Below, one piece after another: positions 8,314 through 49,237 of a stretch of 64,000 bases of DNA. The first letter of the stretch is position 1, and the number at the start of each line of letters is the position of its first letter. The notes below the pieces were generated by a model. It searched no databases and had not been told where the DNA came from. It saw only the letters and a list, made by a program, of their open reading frames with translations. A program made the position numbers and the translations under genes. This DNA comes from a virus (Duplodnaviria > Caudoviricetes), in IMG/VR virus record IMGVR_UViG_2609460327_000001, positions 32,001 to 96,000 of that record. One strand, 5' to 3'.

Positions 8314-9129
8314 TTATGCTGTAACTAAACGGACATTTTCTGCTAAAGCGAATTGTCCTGCAGTAATATATTCAGAGCGTGTTGATAATAGTCTTGCGTT
8401 GAAATTTGTTACATGACTGATAAGAGTGCGTGAGCCTAATATGTTATTTAGATAGCCAGCCATAACGAGAGCTGCCATTTCATTTGTCATCATGCGCTGC
8501 GGTTGATTAGCCACAATATCCCCGCAGGACTCTGTAGGGAGCTTTGATTCCGTATCTGTTAAGATATCTTCATATAGATCTCCAACCGGCTGTAGCACTA
8601 CTTTTCCGCTTAATTTAAGACCGCAAACAATCTGTCCAGAATATCCTGAAGCTGGATCATCTTCATCGTAAGGATCAATTCCACTATCAATGTAGATAAT
8701 ATCGCCTGTGCAGCTATGAAAGTATTCATGCATGATCTTGCGTGTTGCATGATTATCAACACAGCCGATAAGAATCTTTACCCGATGACCCCCAATGCTA
8801 AATGCTTCTTCAATACTTTGAATAGATTCAATGTACTCATCCTTATAATGAATCGGAAAGTCATAAACATTCCCATAACGATCAGCTAACACTTGAGACT
8901 TTACAAAACCAATATCTTCTTCGATGCATGGTTGCCGCAGGAGATTCTTCTCTTCAAATCGATCCCCATCAATAAGCGTATAAGTAAAGCGAAAAACTGG
9001 ATTCGTCTGCAGGAAAGATTTAAGCATTTTTGAAAGACGCTGGGTTAAATATCCTCCATTACCTCCGACGCCAATCTGAACAATAGAAAATCCTGATAAA
9101 GAATCAGCTACATTGATTTCCTTGATCAT
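8314..9129 (-). CDS. ThiF/E1-like ubiquitin-activating enzyme (PRTRC ThiF-like)
   Basis: IGVGGNG nucleotide-binding loop, DGDRFEEKNLLRQ, K..VLA.RY, IGCVDNHATR, YIDSG, and a candidate catalytic Cys in ESC. Confidence 0.9.
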   Translation of the reverse strand: MIKEINVADSLSGFSIVQIGVGGNGGYLTQRLSKMLKSFLQTNPVFRFTYTLIDGDRFEEKNLLRQPCIEEDIGFVKSQVLADRYGNVYDFPIHYKDEYIESIQSIEEAFSIGGHRVKILIGCVDNHATRKIMHEYFHSCTGDIIYIDSGIDPYDEDDPASGYSGQIVCGLKLSGKVVLQPVGDLYEDILTDTESKLPTESCGDIVANQPQRMMTNEMAALVMAGYLNNILGSRTLISHVTNFNARLLSTRSEYITAGQFALAENVRLVTA

Positions 9130-9136
9130 AATATAA

Positions 9137-9562
9137 TCACCCCTTTTTCGGTGCTTTGGTTACATTTGGAATGATATATTTCTGCTCCTTATCAATCATC
9201 ATTTCAGTGCGGTCTTTAGAAAATTGAGGATACTCCATTTCCAAGTACTGTCGCACTTTTTCCAATGTTAATCCGTCTTCTGGAACGGGAATGCGCTTAT
9301 CGTAAACGAGACATACCCAATTCGTATCATATTTGACAGGATCAGTCGGTGATGGCTTTGTAGCATTGACTTTAGGCTTTGAAGATTTTGATTTTGGAGT
9401 TGCTGCAGCAATAGGCTCACCAAAGAGATCATACTCAACATTAGCGTCTTTGCTTTCTGCCTCGTCTTCTGGTTCTTCTGGCTCCACTGATTTCATCATA
9501 TAATCGAGCTGCTTTTGTTTTTCTAATTCCTCATTGTTTTCTTGCTCTTGAATAAAATCCAT
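9137..9562 (-). CDS. Prokaryotic ubiquitin-like protein (PRTRC protein C-like) with an acidic N-terminal extension
   Basis: It lies between E2 and E1. The C-terminal ~65-aa compact domain (P..GLTLEKVRQYLEMEYPQF) ends in ...KKG-COOH. Confidence 0.7.
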   Translation of the reverse strand: MDFIQEQENNEELEKQKQLDYMMKSVEPEEPEDEAESKDANVEYDLFGEPIAAATPKSKSSKPKVNATKPSPTDPVKYDTNWVCLVYDKRIPVPEDGLTLEKVRQYLEMEYPQFSKDRTEMMIDKEQKYIIPNVTKAPKKG

Positions 9563-9573
9563 GATAATTCCTC

Positions 9574-10251
9574 CTAGTTGTTATTAATAAATAATCTAGA
9601 CCAATCACCAAATGTCGTATTCATTGGTGTTAGGATATCGTAATCAAATGGCTTGTTTTTAAACATGTCAAAGACATTATACAAGGTGTCTTTAATTTTG
9701 TTGGTTTCTCCGGAAAAATAAATATGATCATTATTAGGCACTTCACGCCATTGATAAGGGAATGTCTGCAACTGCACAAGATCATGAACCAACTCATTAG
9801 TCCAGTAGCAGAGCTTTCCACTATCGTAAACATTAGAATAAGGGAATCGGTATAGCTCAGACGTGTCTCTAAGGCTTAAGTCTTTATAAGCTGCAACATA
9901 TGCCGATATGAGTGTTTTACCAGCAACAGCAAAAGCAAAAACCATTTTTGGATATGGTATCGATTCGAAACTAAAATCATGATATTTAACATCATGGGTA
10001 GTTTCTTCTACTGTAATAAATAAATAGTTTGTTCCTTTTTCAGATTGAGCATATTTGGCTGTGTTTTGTGGAAGCGCAGGAGAAGTAAGAACCACTCTAT
10101 CAGATGTAAATTCTTTCCCTCCTGTTGATGATTGAAGCATATCAATAATTTGATCCGCATAAACATATTTCGTCGTTTTAACTCCATTATCTTCAATAAT
10201 TAAAAGCGGCATCTTTTCAGGATGAAGCTCGATCTTGACTGACATTTCCAT
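9574..10251 (-). CDS. Prokaryotic E2-like conjugating enzyme (family D / PRTRC protein B-like)
   Basis: PYPKMVF...LYRFPYSNVYDSGKLCYW is the E2-type P..NV...G.lC motif. Confidence 0.8.
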   Translation of the reverse strand: MEMSVKIELHPEKMPLLIIEDNGVKTTKYVYADQIIDMLQSSTGGKEFTSDRVVLTSPALPQNTAKYAQSEKGTNYLFITVEETTHDVKYHDFSFESIPYPKMVFAFAVAGKTLISAYVAAYKDLSLRDTSELYRFPYSNVYDSGKLCYWTNELVHDLVQLQTFPYQWREVPNNDHIYFSGETNKIKDTLYNVFDMFKNKPFDYDILTPMNTTFGDWSRLFINNN

Positions 10252-10758: not shown

Positions 10759-11100
10759 TTAAAAAAATTTTACTGGTTGTCGAACTCGCTGCATCTTTTT
10801 TAGCTCAAATATAAATTCGCGCATATATACATGTTGATAAATACTGTCTCTCAGCATATTGGGAGTATACTCCTCCCCATCTTCAAGGGTGGCAGTATAA
10901 TTAATCTCTTCGAATAGTCGTTTAATGCCTTCAAAGCTAATGTTATCAAGCTGCTCATCAGATACTGAGTTGTTATTAAAAATGACATTTGCAACTTTCA
11001 ATTCTTCTTCTTGATACTGGATATTATTGCTATTAATTGACTGAGTAGATAATGCGATTTCTAGTACACTACTATAATTAAAAAATTGTTCTTTAGGCAT
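10759..11100 (-). CDS. Hypothetical protein
   Basis: 113-aa ORF, translationally coupled (TAATG). Confidence 0.6.
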   Translation of the reverse strand: MPKEQFFNYSSVLEIALSTQSINSNNIQYQEEELKVANVIFNNNSVSDEQLDNISFEGIKRLFEEINYTATLEDGEEYTPNMLRDSIYQHVYMREFIFELKKMQRVRQPVKFF

Positions 11101-11447
11101 TAGATCAACCCCCTGTTTTTTGCTTCTTCAATCATCAATAAATAAGTTTTGGATTTGCGAAGATATTCAGCAATAACATCCATCCTTATATTTTTAGCTT
11201 TATTGCGCCTGTATTTTTTACTCATAATTTGAGAAGCAAGCTCGCGAAGATCAATATCCTGCACTCTTCTTTCAGTTAGGCGAATACAATTTAAAAGATG
11301 ACTATCTGTCATATTGGCAGGCCGAATAACTAACCCCTTTTCTGTAGTCCAGAAGCCAATGAAATCCCCATTTTTAGCCTTCTGCAAATTGATTGAAGCC
11401 TGAAACTCACCGGGGTCTCGATAATGATAGGCTGTCATTAATTCCAT
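11100..11447 (-). CDS. Hypothetical protein with MELMxxY N-terminus
   Basis: Starts MELMTAY after a GGGGTG RBS. Confidence 0.7.
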   Translation of the reverse strand: MELMTAYHYRDPGEFQASINLQKAKNGDFIGFWTTEKGLVIRPANMTDSHLLNCIRLTERRVQDIDLRELASQIMSKKYRRNKAKNIRMDVIAEYLRKSKTYLLMIEEAKNRGLI

Positions 11448-22983: not shown

Positions 22984-23238
22984 CTATACGGCAGCGCTGA
23001 TAAGCGCAGAGTCCACACGAATGATTGATTCATAAGAAAACTGGCAATTCACATCGAAAGTAATCTCACCTTCAGCAGTACGCTTTTCAGCATTATTCAT
23101 GCGGACAACATAAGGGAGGTTAGGGTCGATAAAACATTCACCAGTATATTGAGTTCCATTGATAACAGTAACCGTGTTGATCTTGCCAGGGGAGAGAAGA
23201 CTATCATAGCGGCGATCATAACCAAACATTAAATCCAT
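22984..23238 (-). CDS. Hypothetical protein with MDLMxxY N-terminus
   Basis: Starts MDLMFGY. Confidence 0.6.
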   Translation of the reverse strand: MDLMFGYDRRYDSLLSPGKINTVTVINGTQYTGECFIDPNLPYVVRMNNAEKRTAEGEITFDVNCQFSYESIIRVDSALISAAV

Positions 23239-25186: not shown

Positions 25187-25402
25187 TTAAAGATCAAATA
25201 GGCGATTATCACTATATAAGATACCTAGCTCTTTATCGCTATGGTATAGCTTCTTACCATACTCATAGCCAAGCTTATACTGAGGATCCTCAGTATATAC
25301 GCTAGGGTAGAGGGAGACATAGCCATAGCAATAATGATAAGCATCAACTACACCATTATAATACTCCTTAGTATTCTCCTTATAAGCAGACATCAGCTCC
25401 AT
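25187..25402 (-). CDS. Tyr-rich small protein, MELMxxY family
   Basis: MELMSAY; overlaps the upstream stop codon. Confidence 0.65.
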   Translation of the reverse strand: MELMSAYKENTKEYYNGVVDAYHYCYGYVSLYPSVYTEDPQYKLGYEYGKKLYHSDKELGILYSDNRLFDL

Positions 25403-25710
25403 CATGGCCCACTCCAAAATGGTGGATACATAATACCTACTATGTCAAACTCTCGAATATAGTGTTGATTAGAAGTACTCTCATCGTGAATCACAATGTA
25501 TTTAGAAATTAAATCTTCGTTAACCTCCTGAATAACGCCAGTTGCATAGGATCTGGATATCGTCTTATTATCTAAATCTACGTCATGATAATGTATCACA
25601 CGTACAAAATCACCTATATAGAAGTCGGCATCTTGAAATGTAATGCGATTCATTATAGGGGGAGAAAAGGTAAAACCAGTATTCTCTAAATAGACATTCA
25701 TTAATTCCAT
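25402..25710 (-). CDS. Small protein, MELMxxY family
   Basis: MELMNVY, GGAGG RBS, TGATG coupling. Confidence 0.7.
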   Translation of the reverse strand: MELMNVYLENTGFTFSPPIMNRITFQDADFYIGDFVRVIHYHDVDLDNKTISRSYATGVIQEVNEDLISKYIVIHDESTSNQHYIREFDIVGIMYPPFWSGP

Positions 25711-25979
25711 CAGGCGCCTCCATGAAGTTTGACATTATAGATATTTCCTTCGTATAGAGATATATGTCCATGGTTGGATCGAGGACCATCATCCGGATCT
25801 CGATATATAATTCGAAACATCATACGTTCATGCTGTGAATCGTCATCCCTGTGCATATACTGAGCAATATACTTTATTCCAGGCCGGTCATAGTAGTATT
25901 CGAACTCATAGACTAAGCCTGGAACCATATCTTCTGGTTCTATATGTTTGCGTAGGCGATAACTAGTCATTAATTCCAC
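25710..25979 (-). CDS. Small protein, MELMxxY family
   Basis: A GTG start 8 nt after AAGGAG gives MELMTSY. Confidence 0.7.
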   Translation of the reverse strand: MELMTSYRLRKHIEPEDMVPGLVYEFEYYYDRPGIKYIAQYMHRDDDSQHERMMFRIIYRDPDDGPRSNHGHISLYEGNIYNVKLHGGA

Positions 25980-26206
25980 TCCCAACACTCCTTTATGTTA
26001 GATAGTGGTATGGAACAAGAATTAACTTCATGAAGCATGTTATCTCGGCCATCAAAAGAGACAAGTGCAAATGTAAGAGTGATTCCATCTTCGGTGGCAG
26101 CCGCGATCATGCCCAGATAATAATCATTGCTATAGGTAACAAATACATATTCATCACCTATAGCATACTCAAGCATGGTTCTAAGGTAAGGAGCAATCAG
26201 TTCCAT
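25970..26206 (-). CDS. Small protein, MELMxxY family
   Basis: ATG 26206, 10 nt after AAGGAG, gives MELIAPY. Confidence 0.65.
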   Translation of the reverse strand: MELIAPYLRTMLEYAIGDEYVFVTYSNDYYLGMIAAATEDGITLTFALVSFDGRDNMLHEVNSCSIPLSNIKECWEWN

Positions 26207-26426
26207 AGATTTCATACTCCTTTATAGAGTCAACATGTAATGACATTTCTGATGTTGACTTAATATTACGAGGATCATCACATAAAGATATGTCTACCAT
26301 GCCAAGCTTTAAAAAGTTGCGGTCTAGGGAAACTACAGTTCCGAGCAACTGATCACCGTTGTTTAGTAACTTATAGTCACATCCTATATGAAGCAACGAT
26401 TTAATATACGATGAAATGAGCTCCAC
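26181..26426 (-). CDS. Small protein, MELMxxY family
   Basis: GTG 26426 after GGAGAG gives MELISSY. Confidence 0.65.
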   Translation of the reverse strand: MELISSYIKSLLHIGCDYKLLNNGDQLLGTVVSLDRNFLKLGMVDISLCDDPRNIKSTSEMSLHVDSIKEYEIYGTDCSLP

Positions 26427-26428
26427 GA

Positions 26429-26671
26429 TCAATCACTCTCCATATAAATACTTAATTGATCTATCTCGTCTGGTGCAAACATCATCCCTATTCTGCAGTA
26501 CTGATTATTGATAGTATACGTGTGAAAGATCAAAACTTGAGAATCATGTCTATGCTTATGGAAAACAGCAATATGATACTGACCTTCATAATAAAAAGAA
26601 TAGGTATTGCCAGGGATAAGCTGATGCGCAGCAACAATAGTTCGTTCAAAGTAAGGAGACATAAGCTCCAT
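26429..26671 (-). CDS. Small protein, MELMxxY family
   Basis: ATG 26671 after GAGGTG gives MELMSPY. Confidence 0.7.
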   Translation of the reverse strand: MELMSPYFERTIVAAHQLIPGNTYSFYYEGQYHIAVFHKHRHDSQVLIFHTYTINNQYCRIGMMFAPDEIDQLSIYMESD

Positions 26672-34253: not shown

Positions 34254-34628
34254 ATGTCAAAAGAATGCGCGATTGAAGGATGCAACGAGCATGTTAGATC
34301 AACAGGGCTTTGTGCAAAACACTATCGGAGGAAATGGCTATACGGAGACCCAACATACGAGAAGCAAGATTATGATAGACCAAAGTCTTGCTCAGCATGT
34401 GGTATTAACAAAGTGAAAGCGCTCGGCCTCTGCCCTAATTGCTATGCAAAGAATCGAAGAAAAGAAATGGGATGTAATCAATACATGATCGGTGGCAAGT
34501 CCAATAACGATTGCGAATGTATTGAAGAGGGGTGCAGCAAACCAGCTCTAGCAAGAAAGCTATGCAGGAGGCATTATCTTAAAAAGCGCGCAGAAGAAGA
34601 CGAACATAAATTGGAGGCAAGCAAATAA
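34254..34628 (+). CDS. Cys/His-repeat (putative zinc-binding) protein
   Basis: Repeats of C-x4-C-x9-C-x2-H/C-Y. Confidence 0.75.
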   Translation: MSKECAIEGCNEHVRSTGLCAKHYRRKWLYGDPTYEKQDYDRPKSCSACGINKVKALGLCPNCYAKNRRKEMGCNQYMIGGKSNNDCECIEEGCSKPALARKLCRRHYLKKRAEEDEHKLEASK

Positions 34629-34831
34629 TGAAAAAGCAAGGAAAGATTGTTGTGACGAAAGAAGTGCTCGAGCAAGCGCTTCATCTTAAGGAGGGAATCT
34701 CAATCATTGGGATTGAGATGGATTCAATAGATCGAAATACGTATGCGGTCTATGTTCAAGGAGATAGCTTGCAGACGGTGGGAGAAGCGCAACAATCTAT
34801 AGTCTATCAGCAGGAAGACGTAATGAAATGA
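34628..34831 (+). CDS. Hypothetical protein
   Basis: 67 aa, coupled at both ends. Confidence 0.6.
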   Translation: MKKQGKIVVTKEVLEQALHLKEGISIIGIEMDSIDRNTYAVYVQGDSLQTVGEAQQSIVYQQEDVMK

Positions 34832-35172
34832 AAGCCATATGCGAATTTCCTCGTTGTGGAAAAGAAGTTATCGCAAAAGGGCACTGCTGGAAGCATTACA
34901 GAAGAATCAAGCGGCATAATGATCCCACCATTGTGTTAGCAGGAACAGGGAAGCCTATGTACGAGCATACAGAGTGCATCGAAGAAGGGTGCGATAAGAA
35001 GCCTATTGCAAAAGGACTTTGCGTTGTGCACTACTCCAGAGCAAGGCGAATAAACCGCTTGGCGGACGGACGGTGTACGGTATGTGGGAAAGAGAACAAT
35101 AGCACAAAGAGGGCATGTGATTCCTGCCGCTTGAAACAGAAGATGAGGGCTAAGAGGAAGGCGGGAGCCTAG
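34828..35172 (+). CDS. Cys/His-repeat protein, paralog of 34254-34628
   Basis: ECIEEGC.K...A..LC..HY is shared with the 34254 product. Confidence 0.75.
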   Translation: MKAICEFPRCGKEVIAKGHCWKHYRRIKRHNDPTIVLAGTGKPMYEHTECIEEGCDKKPIAKGLCVVHYSRARRINRLADGRCTVCGKENNSTKRACDSCRLKQKMRAKRKAGA

Positions 35173-35507
35173 TGGAATTGATGAAGGTCTATTCAGAAAA
35201 ATTGAAAGAGGAAAAGTCAAGGAGCAATTGGCTTAATCTTGCAGACGTTGTCTACTATATCCAGCCTGGGGAGGTTGCCGAATCAGAAGATCGCCAATTC
35301 AGCGTGAGTTGTACAGATTCTATCAATGGGCACTTATCCTATTACTTCATGGACAAGGGGCGAAGACATGGAAAGAGACTGGAATTTAGCAAGGGAAGCA
35401 TTATGACGGCATTCCAAAAGATGATGCTGCCTAATCCAGACTTCTATAGTGCCTCATACAAGATAAGGGGGGTGCGAGATATTGGAGCTTATGCAGAAAT
35501 ACATTGA
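35172..35507 (+). CDS. Small protein, MELMxxY family
   Basis: GTG start giving MELMKVY, with TAGTG coupling. Confidence 0.65.
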   Translation: MELMKVYSEKLKEEKSRSNWLNLADVVYYIQPGEVAESEDRQFSVSCTDSINGHLSYYFMDKGRRHGKRLEFSKGSIMTAFQKMMLPNPDFYSASYKIRGVRDIGAYAEIH

Positions 35508-35865
35508 TAATGTTTACTCTCTTAATGGCATCTATATTATGCAAATACCAAGCTCGATGCCGTTTAAACAAGCAAAAGAAATGGCGGATAAATGGAAAAA
35601 TAGATTCGGTCAAGGTAGACCGCTTATGGTTATTCCAGAAGAAGTGGACATTCAGTACATGGAATCATTCGATACGAGTATTGCCATAAGGATGCTTACG
35701 AACGGATATAGGCTTAAAAGAAGCAGCGAGCTTGGAGTAAAGTATATATGGAGTGATAGGTTGAAGCGGAAGGAAGAGGGTCAGAGGTGGAAAAATTACA
35801 CCCTTACAGACGCAGACTTGCTTGCTAGAGATTGGCAGTTGGTCAGGGAGGATCTACAGTTATGA
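35482..35865 (+). CDS. Small protein, MELMxxY family, with a C-terminal 'DLLA.DW' motif
   Basis: A TTG start after AAGGGGGGTG gives MELMQKY. AI..L..G..LKR...DLLARDWQLV recalls DUF2829-type phage proteins. Confidence 0.65.
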   Translation: MELMQKYIDNVYSLNGIYIMQIPSSMPFKQAKEMADKWKNRFGQGRPLMVIPEEVDIQYMESFDTSIAIRMLTNGYRLKRSSELGVKYIWSDRLKRKEEGQRWKNYTLTDADLLARDWQLVREDLQL

Positions 35866-36059
35866 ATATAGCAAATCAAGTCCTAAAGGCTTTAGACGAA
35901 AGCTTCCCTGGCTTAGAGTCTATTGTTGCAGAAGGCGACAGGGTTATCATGTATTGTGAATCAGGAGCTTGGCAGCTAGATATTATAAAGGCGCAGCCCA
36001 TGGAGTATATAGCCATTGACGTTAAGGTGGACGTGTCTGATCTAGTAGGTGAAAGCTAA
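35862..36059 (+). CDS. Hypothetical protein
   Basis: MNIANQ after GGAGG. Confidence 0.55.
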   Translation: MNIANQVLKALDESFPGLESIVAEGDRVIMYCESGAWQLDIIKAQPMEYIAIDVKVDVSDLVGES

Positions 36060-36367
36060 TGAGAACCCCGAAGATCGGATCGAGGTGGCAGCACTACAAA
36101 GGTGGACTATATGTCATATCTGACATAGGTATTGATGCAAGTCGTCATGAGGATGGGAAAGCAATCTGGTACTACCGTGAGGATGAGCCTGATCAGAAAT
36201 ACTACCGACCGATTTTAGAATGGCACAATCCTATTGAGCATGAAGGTGAGGTTGTTCCTCGTTTCAGAGAGCTTGAGAAGGGAGGATCAACACTTGGAGC
36301 TATTGATGGACTATTTGCAAAGGGTATCAAAGGCAAAGGGAGAACCTATCGTCGTCCGAGAGTCTGA
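36059..36367 (+). CDS. DUF1653-family protein
   Basis: WQHYKGGLYVI...YYRP..EW...VPRF. Confidence 0.8.
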   Translation: MRTPKIGSRWQHYKGGLYVISDIGIDASRHEDGKAIWYYREDEPDQKYYRPILEWHNPIEHEGEVVPRFRELEKGGSTLGAIDGLFAKGIKGKGRTYRRPRV

Positions 36368-37091
36368 CTACTATGAGCGCTGGAGACTGTTCCAAGAGTG
36401 CGATAATGGCCATATTGCGGTCGTTGCTCACAGGAGAGCAGGGAAGACCACGGCCATAAGTGAAAAGGCAATCAAGTCAAACAAGAACGTTGTTATATTT
36501 GATCGGTATGTTGCTTCATCACAGGCTCATAGGGATATGATAAGATCACGCCTTATTCAGGATGGTATTCAGTATGATTATACGTCTAATGGGTTCTCCT
36601 TGGGAAATGGCAGGACCATATCTTTAGAGATGAAGATCGGAGAGTATGCACCACAAGAACTAAATGATTGCTTGGTCATATTTGATGAAGCAGACTCTAT
36701 GATGATCCATTCAAGTTGGTTGGAGCAAGTCATGATCTATGCTGATGTTATTATGGTGTCCACATATACAGCATTGTTGGATAACACGTTTAAGAAGTTT
36801 CTTAGTAATCGAATAAAGCCACGGATCGGAGATCATGAAGTCCTGGCCTTTATCATGCCTTCTCCAAGAGCTCCATCTAGTTATGGAGAGTTATTTATGG
36901 ATGCAGAGCAAATTGCCTTACAGATCGAATGTGACCTAGCAAGGGCACGGAAATTCAATGGAATAAGACACGGAAGAGGACGGAGATTAAATGCGAGTTT
37001 TCAAACGACTGAAGAGACAAGACAAGTGCTCCCTAGCGATAATGTTACTGCTAGTGACATCGGCAACGGCACCGCAAGTGATAACGGATAA
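36294..37091 (+). CDS. Stand-alone terminase-like ATPase domain with MELLxxY N-terminus
   Basis: TTG 8 nt after GGGAGG gives MELLMDY. VVAHRRAGKTT Walker A, VIFDEAD Walker B and VST motif III are present; there is no nuclease domain. Confidence 0.7.
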   Translation: MELLMDYLQRVSKAKGEPIVVRESDYYERWRLFQECDNGHIAVVAHRRAGKTTAISEKAIKSNKNVVIFDRYVASSQAHRDMIRSRLIQDGIQYDYTSNGFSLGNGRTISLEMKIGEYAPQELNDCLVIFDEADSMMIHSSWLEQVMIYADVIMVSTYTALLDNTFKKFLSNRIKPRIGDHEVLAFIMPSPRAPSSYGELFMDAEQIALQIECDLARARKFNGIRHGRGRRLNASFQTTEETRQVLPSDNVTASDIGNGTASDNG

Positions 37092-37765: not shown

Positions 37766-38959
37766 ATGGCGGTGAAAAAAGTGAAAGATTTGAAGTTGAA
37801 GCTAGAGGACTTATTTGATTTTGATCTTGCAGCAATTGATATTGGTTTTAATGGAAGCAAGCGTATGTCAAGCTTAGGTATGTTCGGTGTTATACCAAGT
37901 ACTGTTATGCCTACAAATGAAAAATTCGCAAATTCCTTCAAACACACAGAAGTTGATGAGTCGCGCTTGATGGTGAAGACTGCTGACGGTTTCTACCACG
38001 TAGGTGAACAAGCAATGAAGAGTAATAAGCTTCTGGTCACAAGTCGGACAACCAATCATGACCGTGCGTCCGATCCTTCATTCAGAGTTATGTTTGAAAC
38101 CAATCTTGCACTATGTGTTCCTCATGAAGATGGAGAATATGATGTCTACTTAACAACCGGCTTGCCGAATGAGGATTTCGATAAAGGTATTCGCACACGG
38201 TTGGAGGAGTACATAAACCAAAGTTTTGAAGTTGTAATCTACCTTGGTTATGGAAAGAAAATCACTAAGAAAATTAACATTATTGGATATGAAGTTCTGA
38301 GACAGCCAGAGGGAAGTGTGACATCTACACAATTTGCCTTTACAAGAGAAGGCCTTCTGACGACTACTCTCTACAGAGCTTTGACTGCTGTTGTTGATAT
38401 TGGCCACCTGACTACAGACTATGCATTATTCTCCGAAGGCGTATATGTAGAGGAAGAAGGAACTTACGGATCGACACTTGCGACTGCTGAGCTGTACAAG
38501 CGACTCAAAGTGAGCATGGCTATTCACTTTGATAATGAGTTTGGAGTTGCTTACAGTCCAACGGATGATGAACTGGATTCAGTTGTTCGTGGAGAAGATA
38601 TCGAGTTCAATGGTGCTTCTCATAAGTTGTATCATCTTGTAGAAGAAGCCGCGAAGGAAATCTCGGCAGTCATTGCGAACGAGGTCATTACGTCTTGGGG
38701 TCAACATGCGAACCGCGTGAAGATCATCTTGCTTACAGGCGGCGGTGCTCATATCTTCCAAGACTTCCTGAGAGAAGAGTTTGCGAAGCGTAAGGTACAA
38801 GCCTTCTCTGTAGTGGAAGATCCTCAAATGGCTAACGTATATGGATTCTACATCCGAGCAGCCATGAACCAAGTCAAAGAGATGGAAGATGGATCTCTGA
38901 ACTTCGAGCAGGTATACGAAAGATTCATCAAAGATATATTCGAAAGCGAGGCAGCGTAA
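37766..38959 (+). CDS. parM: ParM/StbA-family actin-like ATPase
   Basis: AIDIGFNGSK (phosphate 1), LTTGLP, QPEG, VVDIGHLTTD (phosphate 2), LLTGGGA, DPQMANVYGF. Confidence 0.9.
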   Translation: MAVKKVKDLKLKLEDLFDFDLAAIDIGFNGSKRMSSLGMFGVIPSTVMPTNEKFANSFKHTEVDESRLMVKTADGFYHVGEQAMKSNKLLVTSRTTNHDRASDPSFRVMFETNLALCVPHEDGEYDVYLTTGLPNEDFDKGIRTRLEEYINQSFEVVIYLGYGKKITKKINIIGYEVLRQPEGSVTSTQFAFTREGLLTTTLYRALTAVVDIGHLTTDYALFSEGVYVEEEGTYGSTLATAELYKRLKVSMAIHFDNEFGVAYSPTDDELDSVVRGEDIEFNGASHKLYHLVEEAAKEISAVIANEVITSWGQHANRVKIILLTGGGAHIFQDFLREEFAKRKVQAFSVVEDPQMANVYGFYIRAAMNQVKEMEDGSLNFEQVYERFIKDIFESEAA

Positions 38960-45575: not shown

Positions 45576-47801
45576 TTGGCTAAGCTTTTTATGAATGTCT
45601 TATCACGTATTGGCCTAAAGAACGCAACGACTCCAACGGGCGGCAGCTCCAGTAGCGGCATCACTGTCAATCGTGATCCAAAAGCGACTCAAGTCAAGCG
45701 AGTAGGATATGCAGTCAAAAACAGCTCAGGTGGTAGTGACGCTGAAACTCCGAAATCGGACTTTGCAGCTATTGCAACCGCCATAGAGCGTGATAGCTAT
45801 CTAACACAGACAGTCCTGAAATATAGTGAGCTGATTATGAAAGGCGGCTATGCATTTAAGAGTCGCAGTGATGAAGCTTTGCAGTATCTCAAGACAAGGT
45901 TGGATATGATGGCGATTGCTACACAAGTGCCTACAGACGAGCTATTTCATGGAATCGCAGATGATATTGTAAGATTTCACAACTCTTTCGTTGTCAAAGC
46001 CAGGGCTAAAAATGGCGTGGGTCTACCTCCGGGTCTTCCCGCAACAGCAGTCCTTCCAGCCAAAGACCCCGTAGCCGGATATTTTAGACTTCCACCCGCG
46101 ACGATCTCGATTACGCGGGATGATCAAGGTAATGTAACCAGCTATACGCAGGATTCTGGATCAGGCGGAGACACAGTAGATTTTCAGGTGCAGGATATGA
46201 TTCACATTCCTGTGAATCGTCCAGCAGGCGAAGCATTTGGTATTCCGTTTCTCGCTCCTGTTATAGATGATGTAAGGCTTTTGAGAAAGGTAGAAGAGAA
46301 TGCAGCACTCCTGCTGTATCGACACATCTTTCCGCTTCTGGCTTATACGGTAGGTGTTGCACAGCCGGGATATGAGGCAACGGATGAAGAGCTTGAAGCT
46401 ATTCGATCTGTTATCGAAGATTTACCGACAGATGGTGCGATCGTCCTTCCAGAACGCCATAAAGTAGAAGCTGTTAGTATAACAGCCATTGATGGTCGTC
46501 CTTACCTGGATTATTTCGAAAACCGAGTGTTCTCGGGGCTTGGTATGTCTCAAGTCGATTTCGGTCGGGGAGATACAGCCAATCGAAATACAGCGGACGC
46601 TATGGGTGGAAATAAAGCTGACCGAGTGAAAGGTTGGCAGAAAACGATCCAAATGTACATTGATCAATTCATTATCGAAGAGCTTTTGGTTGAGGGCGGC
46701 TACGATCCTATGGCCAACCCTGATTTTAAAGTTAACTTCGTCTTTAATGAAATTGAGCAAGAAATGCGTATCAAGGTCGAAACACATGAGATCTTTAAAT
46801 TTGAGCATAACGTTCAGACGTGGGATGAAACCCGCAAGAATATTGGAATGGACCCTGTAACCGATGAAGGTCGATTACACTTCCAAATGATTGGGATGCA
46901 GCAAGCAGAGCATCAAGCGACTCTTGATCAAGCAGCAGCCGCGGCATCCGGCAGTGCGGAGACAAACAATAAGCAACAGCCAACCAATCAAAATGGAACA
47001 CGATCCGGACCAAAAAGCAGTACAGAATCCTTGAAGGAAATGTACGACAAAGTGATTGGAATTTCGCTGAAAGAAAAAGACCAATACGACCAGATTCAAT
47101 CGGAATTTGAACTTCCTATTGAGACTGTGCAATCCCTTCATAAAGAGATGAGTAAAGTCTTCTCTGCAATGGAGGAGGATGTGATTGGTGAGATTCAGCG
47201 GACGAATACCCGTAACAGATTCCCAATGACTTCGCCATCTGAAGCCCTTTCTGCGATTCATTTCAGCAAAGACAAAATGGATCAAGTTATTCAGAAAGAA
47301 GCAAGAAGCGTACTCCTTGAAGGAGCAAAGAAAGCTGCTACTCAATTAAAGCTATCTAAAGCGCCTGGTATTAACTTATCACAATCGCTTCGACTGGTAT
47401 CTGAATTTACACAAGATTCTTTTGATTTGATGGAAGAAACAATACATCACGTATTAAATGAAAAGCTCAAAGGTGTAGATGATGAAAACAAAGCAATTCT
47501 AATCACGCGTAGCGTGTTTGAATCTGTAAGGCATCGCATTAAGGCTATTGCCAAAACGACAGTGATTAAGACATACCATTACGGATATGTTCTGGCGCTG
47601 GGCAGAAGTGGAGTCTCTAGCGTAAAAGCTCTTCATGAGCCTGGAAGCTGTTCAACCTGCTATGAGAAATCGCAGGAGATTATCTCACTAGTAGAGTTAT
47701 CGTCCTACGATGAGATGGCTATATTCTATCGCATTCCCCCGTTTCACACGAACTGCGAATGTGATCTAACAATCCATGACGAAGGGGGTGAAGCTAAGTG
47801 A
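45576..47801 (+). CDS. Portal protein with a C-terminal MuF-like head-morphogenesis domain
   Basis: MIHI...FGIP.LAP portal pattern, position, and a C-terminal CSTC...PPFHTNCEC. Confidence 0.8.
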   Translation: MAKLFMNVLSRIGLKNATTPTGGSSSSGITVNRDPKATQVKRVGYAVKNSSGGSDAETPKSDFAAIATAIERDSYLTQTVLKYSELIMKGGYAFKSRSDEALQYLKTRLDMMAIATQVPTDELFHGIADDIVRFHNSFVVKARAKNGVGLPPGLPATAVLPAKDPVAGYFRLPPATISITRDDQGNVTSYTQDSGSGGDTVDFQVQDMIHIPVNRPAGEAFGIPFLAPVIDDVRLLRKVEENAALLLYRHIFPLLAYTVGVAQPGYEATDEELEAIRSVIEDLPTDGAIVLPERHKVEAVSITAIDGRPYLDYFENRVFSGLGMSQVDFGRGDTANRNTADAMGGNKADRVKGWQKTIQMYIDQFIIEELLVEGGYDPMANPDFKVNFVFNEIEQEMRIKVETHEIFKFEHNVQTWDETRKNIGMDPVTDEGRLHFQMIGMQQAEHQATLDQAAAAASGSAETNNKQQPTNQNGTRSGPKSSTESLKEMYDKVIGISLKEKDQYDQIQSEFELPIETVQSLHKEMSKVFSAMEEDVIGEIQRTNTRNRFPMTSPSEALSAIHFSKDKMDQVIQKEARSVLLEGAKKAATQLKLSKAPGINLSQSLRLVSEFTQDSFDLMEETIHHVLNEKLKGVDDENKAILITRSVFESVRHRIKAIAKTTVIKTYHYGYVLALGRSGVSSVKALHEPGSCSTCYEKSQEIISLVELSSYDEMAIFYRIPPFHTNCECDLTIHDEGGEAK

Positions 47802-49237
47802 GGAATGTATACACGCTTACAGAACATGAACAAAAAACACTGGTGCCTAAAGCCTTTAACGAGAATTTAGGGACCATCGGAAAGATCAAACGAGAATCAG
47901 TCCAAGTGTTGAATGAATCAGCCAAAGGAAAACCCAAAAAGCTGATTGTTACCATTGAAGCAATCCACGTTGGTCGTACTCGTAACTATACGTATTACAC
48001 CAAAGAAGGATTGTCTGCAGGTCTTGAAAGCTGGACGTCACCACGGCCGAAGCCGGTACTGACTCACCACAATGATGTTGACGGTGAGCCAATCGGACGG
48101 ATCATCAAGGCAGAGTACCATGATGTGACGATGTCGGGTAAGCCAGGGCTTATGTTTACCGTAGAGAGCACCGATCCGGTCGCAATTGAGAAGGTGCTTG
48201 ATGGTCGATACCAAACAGTATCTATCGGGGCGAGTACAGACAAGGTTACTTGTAACATTTGCGGATCAGACCGCACTCAAGAGTGGTGTGAGCACTATCC
48301 CGGCCAAGAGTACGAGGATCAGACAGCTCATTTCATTATTGGAACAACATATGGACGTGAAGTTTCATATGTAAATGTCCCTGCTGACGAATATGCCGGA
48401 AACACAGGTGTTACTGCAGTTTATGAGGACGATGGAAGCAATTCAAACGGGTCTTCTCAAGAATCCGTTCAAATGAATATCTTTCAACTAGCCGAAGGGT
48501 TACTGCAGCATGTAGATAGCCCAGGTACTAACCTATATGAGCAGTTAAATGAAGGACAAAAGAAAGCCTTCGAAAACTTGCTTAGATTTGAAGAAGGGAG
48601 TACAACAATGCCTAATCCAAATGAGGAAAATCCAGAAACTACAGTTACAGGAACAAAAGAAGGAGAGCAGACGCCTCCAACTGAGCCAGAAACAACCCCA
48701 GTGGCTGGCACTAAAGAAGGAGAGCAAACACCTCCTGCACCGGCTAATGCTGACCCAGTTGCACAAACAACGGAAAGCAACCCGCCTGCTCCTGCAACTC
48801 CTCCAACTCCGACAGTTAATGTGACGGAAATGCAGCAGACCATTACAAATCTCGTAATGGAGAACCAACGCATTGGAGCGAAGCTGTCTGAAGCACAAGC
48901 AGAAGTTTCTCGACTGACACAAGAAAATGCAACATTGAATGAGGCAGCTCATCGATCTCTTGCAGAAAGCGTTGTTCAGTTAAAACGTCAGCTAAACAAA
49001 CCTGATGTTGTAGGTGTCGATCACCAAGAAGCAGTAGATGCACATGCAGCACGTAGTAAAGAGTCCTTGGAAAATACAAGAACTGATCTTCTTGCAGAAT
49101 CTAAAACTCTTAAGCCGGTTCCAGGTAGCGTAACAAACCCTGGTGTTCATACAGATGAGTCCGATAAGCCGAAAACGATGACTGGACAAGATGCTGTAAA
49201 TCTATTTAGTGGCATGTTTAAAAGCAAAAAACACTAA
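47798..49237 (+). CDS. Prohead protease fused to a scaffold domain
   Basis: KPVLTHH...PIGR, VSIG (Ser), EVSYVNVPAD, a Zn-ribbon insert (CNICG...CEH), a P/T/E linker and a coiled coil. Confidence 0.85.
   Translation: MRNVYTLTEHEQKTLVPKAFNENLGTIGKIKRESVQVLNESAKGKPKKLIVTIEAIHVGRTRNYTYYTKEGLSAGLESWTSPRPKPVLTHHNDVDGEPIGRIIKAEYHDVTMSGKPGLMFTVESTDPVAIEKVLDGRYQTVSIGASTDKVTCNICGSDRTQEWCEHYPGQEYEDQTAHFIIGTTYGREVSYVNVPADEYAGNTGVTAVYEDDGSNSNGSSQESVQMNIFQLAEGLLQHVDSPGTNLYEQLNEGQKKAFENLLRFEEGSTTMPNPNEENPETTVTGTKEGEQTPPTEPETTPVAGTKEGEQTPPAPANADPVAQTTESNPPAPATPPTPTVNVTEMQQTITNLVMENQRIGAKLSEAQAEVSRLTQENATLNEAAHRSLAESVVQLKRQLNKPDVVGVDHQEAVDAHAARSKESLENTRTDLLAESKTLKPVPGSVTNPGVHTDESDKPKTMTGQDAVNLFSGMFKSKKH

Follow-up and report, generated by a model that had tools for sequence, protein, structure and literature searches.

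A Short N-Terminal Peptide Shared by Unrelated Small Proteins of a Bacillales Jumbo-Phage Lineage, a Candidate Docking Label

A Recurrent Heptapeptide at Protein Starts

The DNA analyzed here, referred to as the window, is a stretch of 64,000 nucleotides corresponding to bases 32001–96000 of a 206,307-bp virus record (IMG/VR IMGVR_UViG_2609460327_000001), a jumbo phage of a Bacillales lineage that is given the handle G000. On the plus strand of the window, three open reading frames (ORFs) starting at 35172, 35482, and 36294 encode proteins with nearly the same first seven residues (MELMKVY, MELMQKY, and MELLMDY), and the minus strand contributes MELMTAY (11447) and MDLMFGY (23238). This N-terminal peptide is called the tag below. 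A first-pass annotation had pointed out these five N-termini, and all of them are present in the sequence as described. Positions are those of the window unless marked as genome positions or given by locus (L), and the features discussed are collected in Table 1. The gene call used for G000 is a crude one of 243 genes, based on Shine–Dalgarno and codon signals.

The strict pattern, a start codon followed by [ED]-L-[ML]-x-x-Y, matches 17 times on the two strands of the whole genome, and the ORFs that it opens are all 52 codons or longer. The window contains nine of these matches; admitting Ile as the fourth residue brings in two more on the minus strand, with starts at 26206 and 26426, which gives the 11 tagged ORFs that the first-pass annotation had counted there. 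With Ile, Val, Ala, or Phe admitted at this position, the genome total is 20, and the motif can be generalized as M-[E/D]-L-[M/I/V/L/A]-x-x-Y-[L/I/M]-x-[R/N/K]. By comparison, 30 genomes generated by an order-2 Markov model contained a mean of 0.53 strict matches, with a maximum of 3. The pattern M[ED]L[MILVA]xxY opens 15 of the 243 called genes versus 0.20 predicted, under independence, from the genome's own position-specific N-terminal frequencies. The genome-wide tally, 17 strict or 20 generalized cases, is thus to be set against about 0.2–0.5 by chance. Furthermore, [ED]L[ML]xxY occurs 30 times in the six-frame translation, and 17 of these occurrences stand directly behind a start codon. 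No late structural gene of G000 carries the strict motif, as had also been stated; an offset variant, MTELMSRY (genome 156428), sits within the tail region.

The three plus-strand ORFs start with GTG or TTG. Each of these starts was examined and has a Shine–Dalgarno-like run 4–8 nt upstream, and in G007, the closest relative, ATG stands at the corresponding codon of all three orthologues. On these sequence grounds, the unusual starts are therefore credible. Full-text literature searches, judged from the search results alone, gave no earlier description of the motif.

Distribution among Phages and Hosts

The large terminase of G000 shares 45% identity with its counterpart in Moorella phage MTATph1 and 34–40% with those of the Bacillus phages Edson, WH1, KLEB27-3, and 0305phi8-36. 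Closer kin are found in IMG/VR, with terminase identities of 68–89%; nine related genomes were fetched, and ORFs were called in each. Two clade members are whole contigs in isolate assemblies, one of 194,705 bp in Oceanobacillus profundus DSM 18246 (G011:C61) and one of 197,999 bp in Alicyclobacillus shizuokensis NBRC 103103 (the same as G002). The compared genomes have G+C contents of 34–52%.

ORFs of at least 40 aa matching M-[E/D]-L-hydrophobic-x-x-Y were counted in each genome, giving 20 in G000, 8 in G007 (a 117-kb fragment), 24 in G001, 16 in G002, 8 in G004, 13 in G005, and 5 in G010. From these 94 ORFs, five matches that are internal segments of long ORFs were dropped, leaving 89 tags for analysis. 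Four of the dropped matches are internal to orthologues of the Pol III alpha subunit (DLIPSYI) or of a portal-neighbor gene (C-terminal), and the fifth lies inside another long ORF of G001. The start of a Cas4-like nuclease, MMAGLLQTYIE, was also rejected as a tag, since its orthologues show a native helix there. G003 and the Oceanobacillus contig have three N-terminal tags each. Overall, the tag is found on 3–22 ORFs per genome across nine related jumbo-phage genomes.

The five more distant isolates (MTATph1, Edson, WH1, KLEB27-3, and 0305phi8-36) contain no match to the tag pattern, and MTATph1 and 0305phi8-36, read whole, show no recurrent N-terminus of any kind. In the latter two genomes, the motif core occurs 0 times at the N-terminus versus 12–16 times internally, whereas tag-bearing genomes have 5–22 N-terminal occurrences at an equal internal rate. 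In the Alicyclobacillus shizuokensis assembly, 13 of the 15 pattern matches fall on the 198-kb phage contig and only 2 in the other ~3.4 Mb. A C-terminal FxRx[VL]E[VIY] tail, another candidate signature, was found in none of 8 genomes examined. The motif is real, and it is phage- and not host-specific; as far as genome comparison can tell, it is a trait of one Bacillales jumbo-phage lineage.

Unrelated Proteins behind One Peptide

The bodies of the tagged proteins bear no resemblance to one another. When 22 tagged or relaxed-tag proteins of G000 were compared without their first 12 residues, no pairwise BLASTP match was better than E = 0.07. Tagged genes form tandem runs of 6 in G000, of 8 and 5 in G001, and of 4 and 4 in G002, and only one significant pair was found within the four tandem arrays tested. 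Together with the two different folds described below, these results agree with the earlier proposal that the tag is modular and does not mark a tandemly duplicated family.

One of these folds is a MazG pyrophosphohydrolase. Among 7,021 homologues retrieved from a library of 1.84 billion proteins, the 150 best align from query residue 6 or later, most of them from residues 10–21. The loose tag pattern is present in a single one of these 150 sequences, where it is the domain's own first helix. In the AlphaFold2 model of the protein, which has a mean predicted local distance difference test (pLDDT) score of 96.6, residues 1–13 are a coil with a score of about 78, and the first helix comprises residues 14–27.

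The other fold is the ATPase encoded by ORF 36294, whose family is tagged in seven genomes. The protein had been listed as an ATPase in the first-pass annotation; indeed, it has a stand-alone terminase-type domain with Walker A (AHRRAGKTT) and Walker B (IFDEAD) motifs and lacks a nuclease domain. Its model consists of a detached N-terminal helix (residues 2–11, pLDDT 46–51), a linker, and a core with scores of 85–95. The top Foldseek matches of the core are the large terminases of HK97 (E = 4.6e-6), P74-26, D6E, and T4 gp17 (to 1e-4), and BLASTP identity to TerL N-domains is 24–28%; a PDB sequence search returned no match. Across six orthologues, the invariant columns are M1, E2, L3, Y7, W30, A45, R47, G50, K51, and A59. 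Hence, at 22–41% identity, M1, E2, L3, and Y7 vary no more than the Gly-Lys of Walker A. A search for loci with the alignment of this family yielded four, three of them previously known. Homologues that lack the tag are gp091 of KLEB27-3, gp028 of WH1, and the orthologues in G003 and in the Oceanobacillus contig. For both folds, then, homologues elsewhere are without the heptapeptide, as is expected of a modular tag: a single loose match among the 150 best for MazG, and untagged proteins in four phages for the ATPase. According to the structural models, the tag lies outside the folded domain in MazG and in the ATPase, and the sequence comparisons show that its gains and losses are independent of the domain that follows.

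A locus of G005 carries a 161-codon ORF with three in-frame copies of the tag, at residues 1, 44, and 64, and the G001 orthologue aligns to it from the third copy onward. The first two copies may be left over from genes that have since been replaced, which would hint at a turnover of gene bodies behind a kept tag.

Selection on the Peptide

Among the 89 tags, the codons for Leu3 are TTG (8), CTT (20), CTA (10), TTA (18), CTC (17), and CTG (16), both Glu and both Tyr codons are in use, and the upstream sequence varies. Within a single orthologue family, up to five Leu codons are found at Leu3, and the start codon varies among ATG, GTG, and TTG. A DNA-level repeat or gene-junction element is ruled out by the six Leu codons and the three start codons at the same positions. 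Because Leu3 uses all six of its codons, selection acts on the peptide and not on the DNA.

Residue preferences are also seen at positions outside the search pattern. Position 8 is Leu, Ile, or Met in 60 of the 89 tags (39, 13, and 8, respectively), position 10 is Arg, Asn, or Lys in 42 (20, 13, and 9), and position 6 is Ala in 26, while no conserved residue is found past position 10–11. In a short helix, residues 3, 4, 7, and 8 would lie on one face. The residue favored at position 4 shifts by genome, even between orthologues: it is Met in 15 of the 20 tags of G000, Val, Ala, or Ile (11, 6, and 5) in G001, Ile in 8 of the 15 in G002, and Val in 8 of the 11 in G005. Additionally, all five tags of G010 have Asp in place of Glu at position 2. 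A shift of this kind would be expected if the tags of each genome co-evolved with one shared binding site, and its concerted nature thus suggests, though indirectly, a single co-evolving reader.

The tag is well kept between orthologues. A cross-genome search with the tag trimmed from the query yielded 82 orthologue pairs, 56 of which have the tag at the expected N-terminus. All 56 are among the 63 clade-internal pairs, of which five others have an offset or degenerate tag (MSELVGAY, MTELAEAY, MNLTETY, and MNLVETY) and two are apparent window artefacts. The remaining 19 untagged pairs come from three G010 queries that match structural or terminase proteins of other genomes.

Tagged Genes of the Window and Their Surroundings

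The families behind the tag are for the most part without annotation. A Pfam scan of 20 tagged proteins placed one above the cut-off, the MazG/PRA-PH pyrophosphohydrolase, and four below it, with no match for 15; NCBIfam gave no match for the tagged proteins, and a homologue search with a single 154-aa tagged protein returned only itself. On this basis, the suggestion of the first-pass annotation that the tagged cargo is enriched in anti-defence proteins is not supported. Similarly, its "DUF2829-like" assignment of ORF 35482 could not be upheld, as the C-terminal match to Tad2, a Thoeris anti-defence protein (DUF2829, PF11195; profile positions 49–73, E = 0.0036), scores 18.2 bits and thus falls under the Pfam gathering score of 25 bits; a protein-atlas search with this ORF gave no usable match. 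The tagged gene that had been placed by a Ubl operon is indeed found there: ORF 11447 is on the same strand as, and downstream of, genes for a ThiF-type E1 (1.3e-7) and a Prok-E2_D E2 (2.1e-6), which have an unassigned 141-aa gene between them.

Table 1. Tagged ORFs and other features of the phage genome and its relatives.
Feature	Position	Strand	Length	Start codon	N-terminus	Remarks
Tagged ORF	11100..11447	-	115 aa		MELMTAYHYR	G007 and G004 orthologues tagged
Tagged ORF	22984..23238	-	84 aa		MDLMFGYDRR
Tagged ORF	25187..25402	-	71 aa		MELMSAYKEN	First (most downstream) of six adjacent tagged genes
Tagged ORF	25402..25710	-	102 aa		MELMNVYLEN
Tagged ORF	25710..25979	-	89 aa	GTG	MELMTSYRLR	G007 and G001 orthologues tagged
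Tagged ORF	25970..26206	-	78 aa		MELIAPYLRT	Ile at position 4
Tagged ORF	26181..26426	-	81 aa	GTG	MELISSYIKS	Ile at position 4
Tagged ORF	26429..26671	-	80 aa		MELMSPYFER	Last (most upstream) of the six-gene run
Tagged ORF	35172..35507	+	111 aa	GTG	MELMKVYSEK	No family; G007 orthologue ATG, MELMKAYSEK
Tagged ORF	35482..35865	+	127 aa	TTG	MELMQKYIDN	G007, G001, and G002 orthologues tagged
Tagged ORF	36294..37091	+	265 aa	TTG	MELLMDYLQR	Stand-alone terminase-type ATPase domain
E1/E2 genes	8314-10245	-
Zinc-ribbon-like pair	34254-35172	+	124 and 114 aa
DUF1653 protein	36059-36367	+
Actin-like segregation protein	37766-38959	+
Candidate prohead protease	47798-49237
Beta sliding clamp	genome 3581-4918, L001	-	445 aa
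Tagged ORF behind helicase gene	genome 7085-7243, L001	-	52-61 aa			No Shine-Dalgarno run
AAA module	genome 25068-27837 (L157 5068-7837)	-
AAA+ ATPase	genome 26185-27837		550 aa			Part of the AAA module
Tagged ORF of G007	G007 111665	+	61 aa			No Shine-Dalgarno run
Three-tag ORF of G005	G005 L121 3214-3696	+	161 codons
Major capsid protein of G010	G010 L173 1212-2306	-			MDLMEKYM

Directly upstream of the three plus-strand tagged ORFs, two neighboring proteins contain repeated Cys-x2-Cys...His-Tyr zinc-ribbon-like units, with weak matches to Zf_WRKY19 and Zn_ribbon_LapB. The tagged ATPase gene begins within the gene for a DUF1653 protein (3.2e-9), the two sharing 74 nt. Between 20000 and 39000, intrinsic-terminator-like hairpins number 24 versus 11.9 in shuffles (standard deviation 3.4), mostly on the minus strand, and a terminator-like hairpin stands directly upstream of the tagged gene 23238. 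Sigma-70-type promoter matches are not above shuffles in number (55 versus 59).

Elsewhere in the genome, a tagged ORF begins a few bases past the stop codon of the gene for a 1081-aa SNF2-type helicase, and a like ORF in G007 begins one codon past an upstream in-frame stop. Because the G007 ORF has the same features, the arrangement suggests translational coupling of the tagged ORF behind the helicase gene. The window also encodes an actin-like segregation protein of the Alp7A/ParM type (ALP_N 3.5e-25, MreB-like_C, and Alp7A_like_C). Since such an actin is present and clade members occur as whole contigs in two Bacillales isolate assemblies, the lineage may be carried as a plasmid-like prophage.

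Search for a Reader of the Tag

According to tblastn, nine genes of G000 recur in every complete tag-bearing genome, G010 among them, but not in MTATph1 or 0305phi8-36. They encode a ThyX fusion, a radical-SAM protein, a coiled-coil protein, four virion-region proteins, an AAA+ ATPase, and a DUF1257-like protein. The last two belong to an AAA module, which also comprises a 120-aa helical protein and a small third module protein that we take to be DUF2997-like. All clade genomes, as well as G010, have the genes of this module in the same order; the DUF2997-like gene of G010 gave no tblastn match at the threshold used and was found by blastp and profile. The AAA+ ATPase has a 230-aa N-domain and an ATPase domain that most resembles VAT/Cdc48/p97 (E = 2.5e-49). 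PDB sequence searches gave no match for the DUF1257-like protein or for the N-domain of the ATPase. Full-length homologues of the ATPase are encoded by cluster O mycobacteriophages and by Rhizobium phages.

Two other candidates were rejected. The β sliding clamp of G000 has N- and C-terminal extensions beyond its three Pfam clamp domains, and the corresponding ORF (429–476 aa) is present in all seven whole clade genomes and is distantly related to the clamp of 0305phi8-36. In G010, no clamp was found even with a clade-specific profile. As a gene correlated with the tag, the clamp fails in both directions, for 0305phi8-36 has a clamp without tags and G010 has tags without a clamp. The E1/E2 genes are found in G007, G002, G004, and G010, and they are rejected because they are absent from the tag-rich G001 and G005. 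The AAA module co-occurs with the tag, unlike the E1/E2 operon and the clamp.

Interpretation and Alternative Explanations

Judging from the sequences, the tag most likely serves about twenty unrelated small proteins of G000 as a docking or sorting label. We infer that the label probably docks all tagged proteins onto one common, co-evolving reader. A further-reaching proposal, which we regard as tentative although it names the likeliest single destination, is that it is a portable N-terminal address label that loads proteins as procapsid cargo. In this scheme, the label would be added to proteins that have nothing else in common and are mostly small and non-structural, and one common reader would bind it via the helix face. 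The tagged proteins would then enter the procapsid interior as cargo and be delivered into the next host along with the DNA. Such cargo would include the MazG pyrophosphatase, the terminase-like ATPase, and dozens of ORFans that possibly counter host defences. It is likewise conceivable, though doubtful, that the lineage has a sorting code of its own, with a peptide of 8–10 residues bolted onto any new accessory gene, some 20 proteins per genome loaded into the capsid, and a reader co-evolving with them.

Besides the portability of the tag, two features are consistent with a capsid destination. Tagged genes stand in hypervariable runs of 2–8 adjacent small ORFs, and two tagged proteins have a head-related identity, namely the terminase-type ATPase of seven genomes and the major capsid protein of G010. 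The N-terminus of the latter scores 11.3 with the clade tag profile, which is rank 3 of 71,557 positions. Mimicry of the capsid N-arm by the tags was considered and rejected, as the tag profile scores the N-arm at about 0 or below in six of the six clade genomes.

Short portable targeting peptides are a known kind of device, of which the present motif would be a new variant. The internal proteins of T4 have a short conserved N-terminal peptide (CTS) as the sole common part of a diverse, fast-evolving accessory set that counters defence (PMC3012670). The present tag is likewise a short N-terminal peptide common to otherwise unrelated proteins, here also in hypervariable gene runs and portable between folds. 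Unlike the T4 peptide, it has no conserved cleavage site behind it, is known from genes alone, and is found on 3–22 genes per genome in an unrelated lineage (0305phi8-36-like, with a Bacillales host); the comparison is made with descriptions of the T4 peptide. Cargo-loading peptides of encapsulins and encapsulation peptides of bacterial microcompartments are short terminal helices that address unrelated enzymes into a protein shell, and the encapsulin shell itself has the phage capsid fold. In contrast to the present tag, encapsulin peptides are usually C-terminal, and their consensus sequences are different.

Several observations weigh against a capsid-loading label. No reader was found among the G000 genes compared across tag-bearing and tag-less genomes, and the distribution across phages comes down to one or two events in evolution, not to many independent ones. 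No maturation-protease site is visible after the tag in the 89 cases, in line with the lack of conservation there, and the candidate prohead protease of the window has only a weak protease match. Within the G000 clade, no portal, protease, scaffold-position, or capsid protein is tagged. The tagged genes lie among replication and accessory genes, outside the head operon, and the three tags of G003 and of G011:C61 flank the Pol III alpha gene and adjoin a helicase–methyltransferase pair, which fits a role in replication equally well. Finally, 20 or more species of cargo would be many.

Other readers have been weighed against the capsid, each of them improbable. A host factor is an unlikely reader, be it an AAA+ protease that recognizes the tag as an N-terminal degron and so limits how long early proteins last, or a chaperone or RNA polymerase that uses it as a handle. 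Such a factor would account for the placement of the motif, nearly always at the extreme N-terminus (17–22 N-terminal occurrences versus background-level internal ones), for its use mostly on small, non-structural genes, and, through host differences (G+C 34–52%; Oceanobacillus, Alicyclobacillus), for the genome-specific position 4. However, a destruction signal is hard to reconcile with tags on the major capsid protein of G010, on MazG, and on the ATPase, and host genomes make no use of the motif themselves, as judged from the Alicyclobacillus assembly. The phage's own Ycf46/Cdc48-like AAA+ module, which would remodel, unfold, or hand on tagged proteins, is a rather improbable reader as well. 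The AAA and DUF1257-like genes are among the nine co-occurring genes described above; none of the five tag-less isolates has the AAA gene, whereas G003, G008, G009, and G010 all do; and a profile search found all three module genes in nine of the nine whole tag-bearing genomes and in neither W01 nor W05. Enzymes of the VAT/Cdc48/p97 type, to which the AAA domain is closest, engage protein termini, and terminal degrons of AAA+ unfoldases resemble the tag in their extreme-terminal site. On the other hand, this co-occurrence is phylogenetically non-independent and reflects few evolutionary events. The mycobacteriophage Corndog encodes a full-length homologue of the ATPase (29% identity over 91% of the query), yet the motif opens none of its 122 annotated proteins. 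In an alignment to VAT, the pore loop has Lys where VAT has Trp, the N-domain has no recognizable peptide-binding relative, and no partner protease is seen. Unlike terminal degrons, moreover, the tag is found on a capsid protein and on conserved enzymes. Docking of accessory proteins onto the phage replisome, through the β clamp or Pol III alpha, is given an equally low probability. The spacing of hydrophobic residue 4, aromatic residue 7, and hydrophobic residue 8 recalls the PIP box, and as in PIP-box and β-clamp peptides, a hydrophobic/aromatic i, i+3, i+4 motif would bring many proteins to one hub. All seven whole clade genomes encode the clamp, the tags of tag-poor genomes lie by Pol III alpha and the SNF2 helicase–methyltransferase pair, and a MazG is tagged. 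Nevertheless, known clamp motifs have a leading Gln, which the tag lacks, the clamp does not track the tag (G010 and 0305phi8-36), and up to eight hypervariable small ORFans per run are unlikely replisome parts. DLIPSYI, found inside Pol III alpha, sits in a segment conserved among clade orthologues, presumably corresponding to a conserved motif of bacterial DnaE, and is not a tag.

It is also improbable, and somewhat more so, that the tag has no docking role and instead concerns translation or early elongation or N-terminal processing, or is a relic of genes slotting in behind a ribosome-binding site and first codons. The fixed position beside the start codon, the G005 ORF whose three in-frame copies resemble remnants of replaced genes, and the tag on the highly expressed capsid protein of G010 could all be explained in this way. 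Against it stand the absence of DNA-level conservation (six Leu, both Glu, and both Tyr codons, with variable upstream sequence), the fact that most highly expressed structural genes are untagged, and the one-sided hydrophobic pattern at positions 3, 4, 7, and 8, as in a binding helix; besides, a relic would not remain invariant while the protein drops to 22–41% identity. The least probable explanation by far is that all tagged proteins are diverged paralogues with the tag as their best-conserved segment. Many tagged genes are indeed adjacent small ORFs, and three adjacent genes of G002 are detectable paralogues. This explanation is already largely refuted by the lack of similarity past residue 12 among the 22 G000 proteins, by the single significant pair in four arrays, and by two unrelated known folds, MazG and the terminase-type ATPase, whose outside homologues are untagged.

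Conclusions

A docking or sorting label shared by unrelated proteins is therefore the preferred explanation of the tag, with the capsid as its likeliest single, though still doubtful, destination. The question can be tested at the bench, since two culture-collection strains, NBRC 103103 and DSM 18246, carry clade members. If the label is real, as much as 9% of the gene content of these phages would form one functional set, nearly all of them ORFans that are otherwise unannotated; one peptide would serve as a handle on the reader, and one fusion as a handle on sorting. If capsid loading is true, the principle of the T4 internal proteins would extend, on a larger scale, to an unrelated Gram-positive jumbo-phage lineage, and it would offer a route to packaging foreign proteins.

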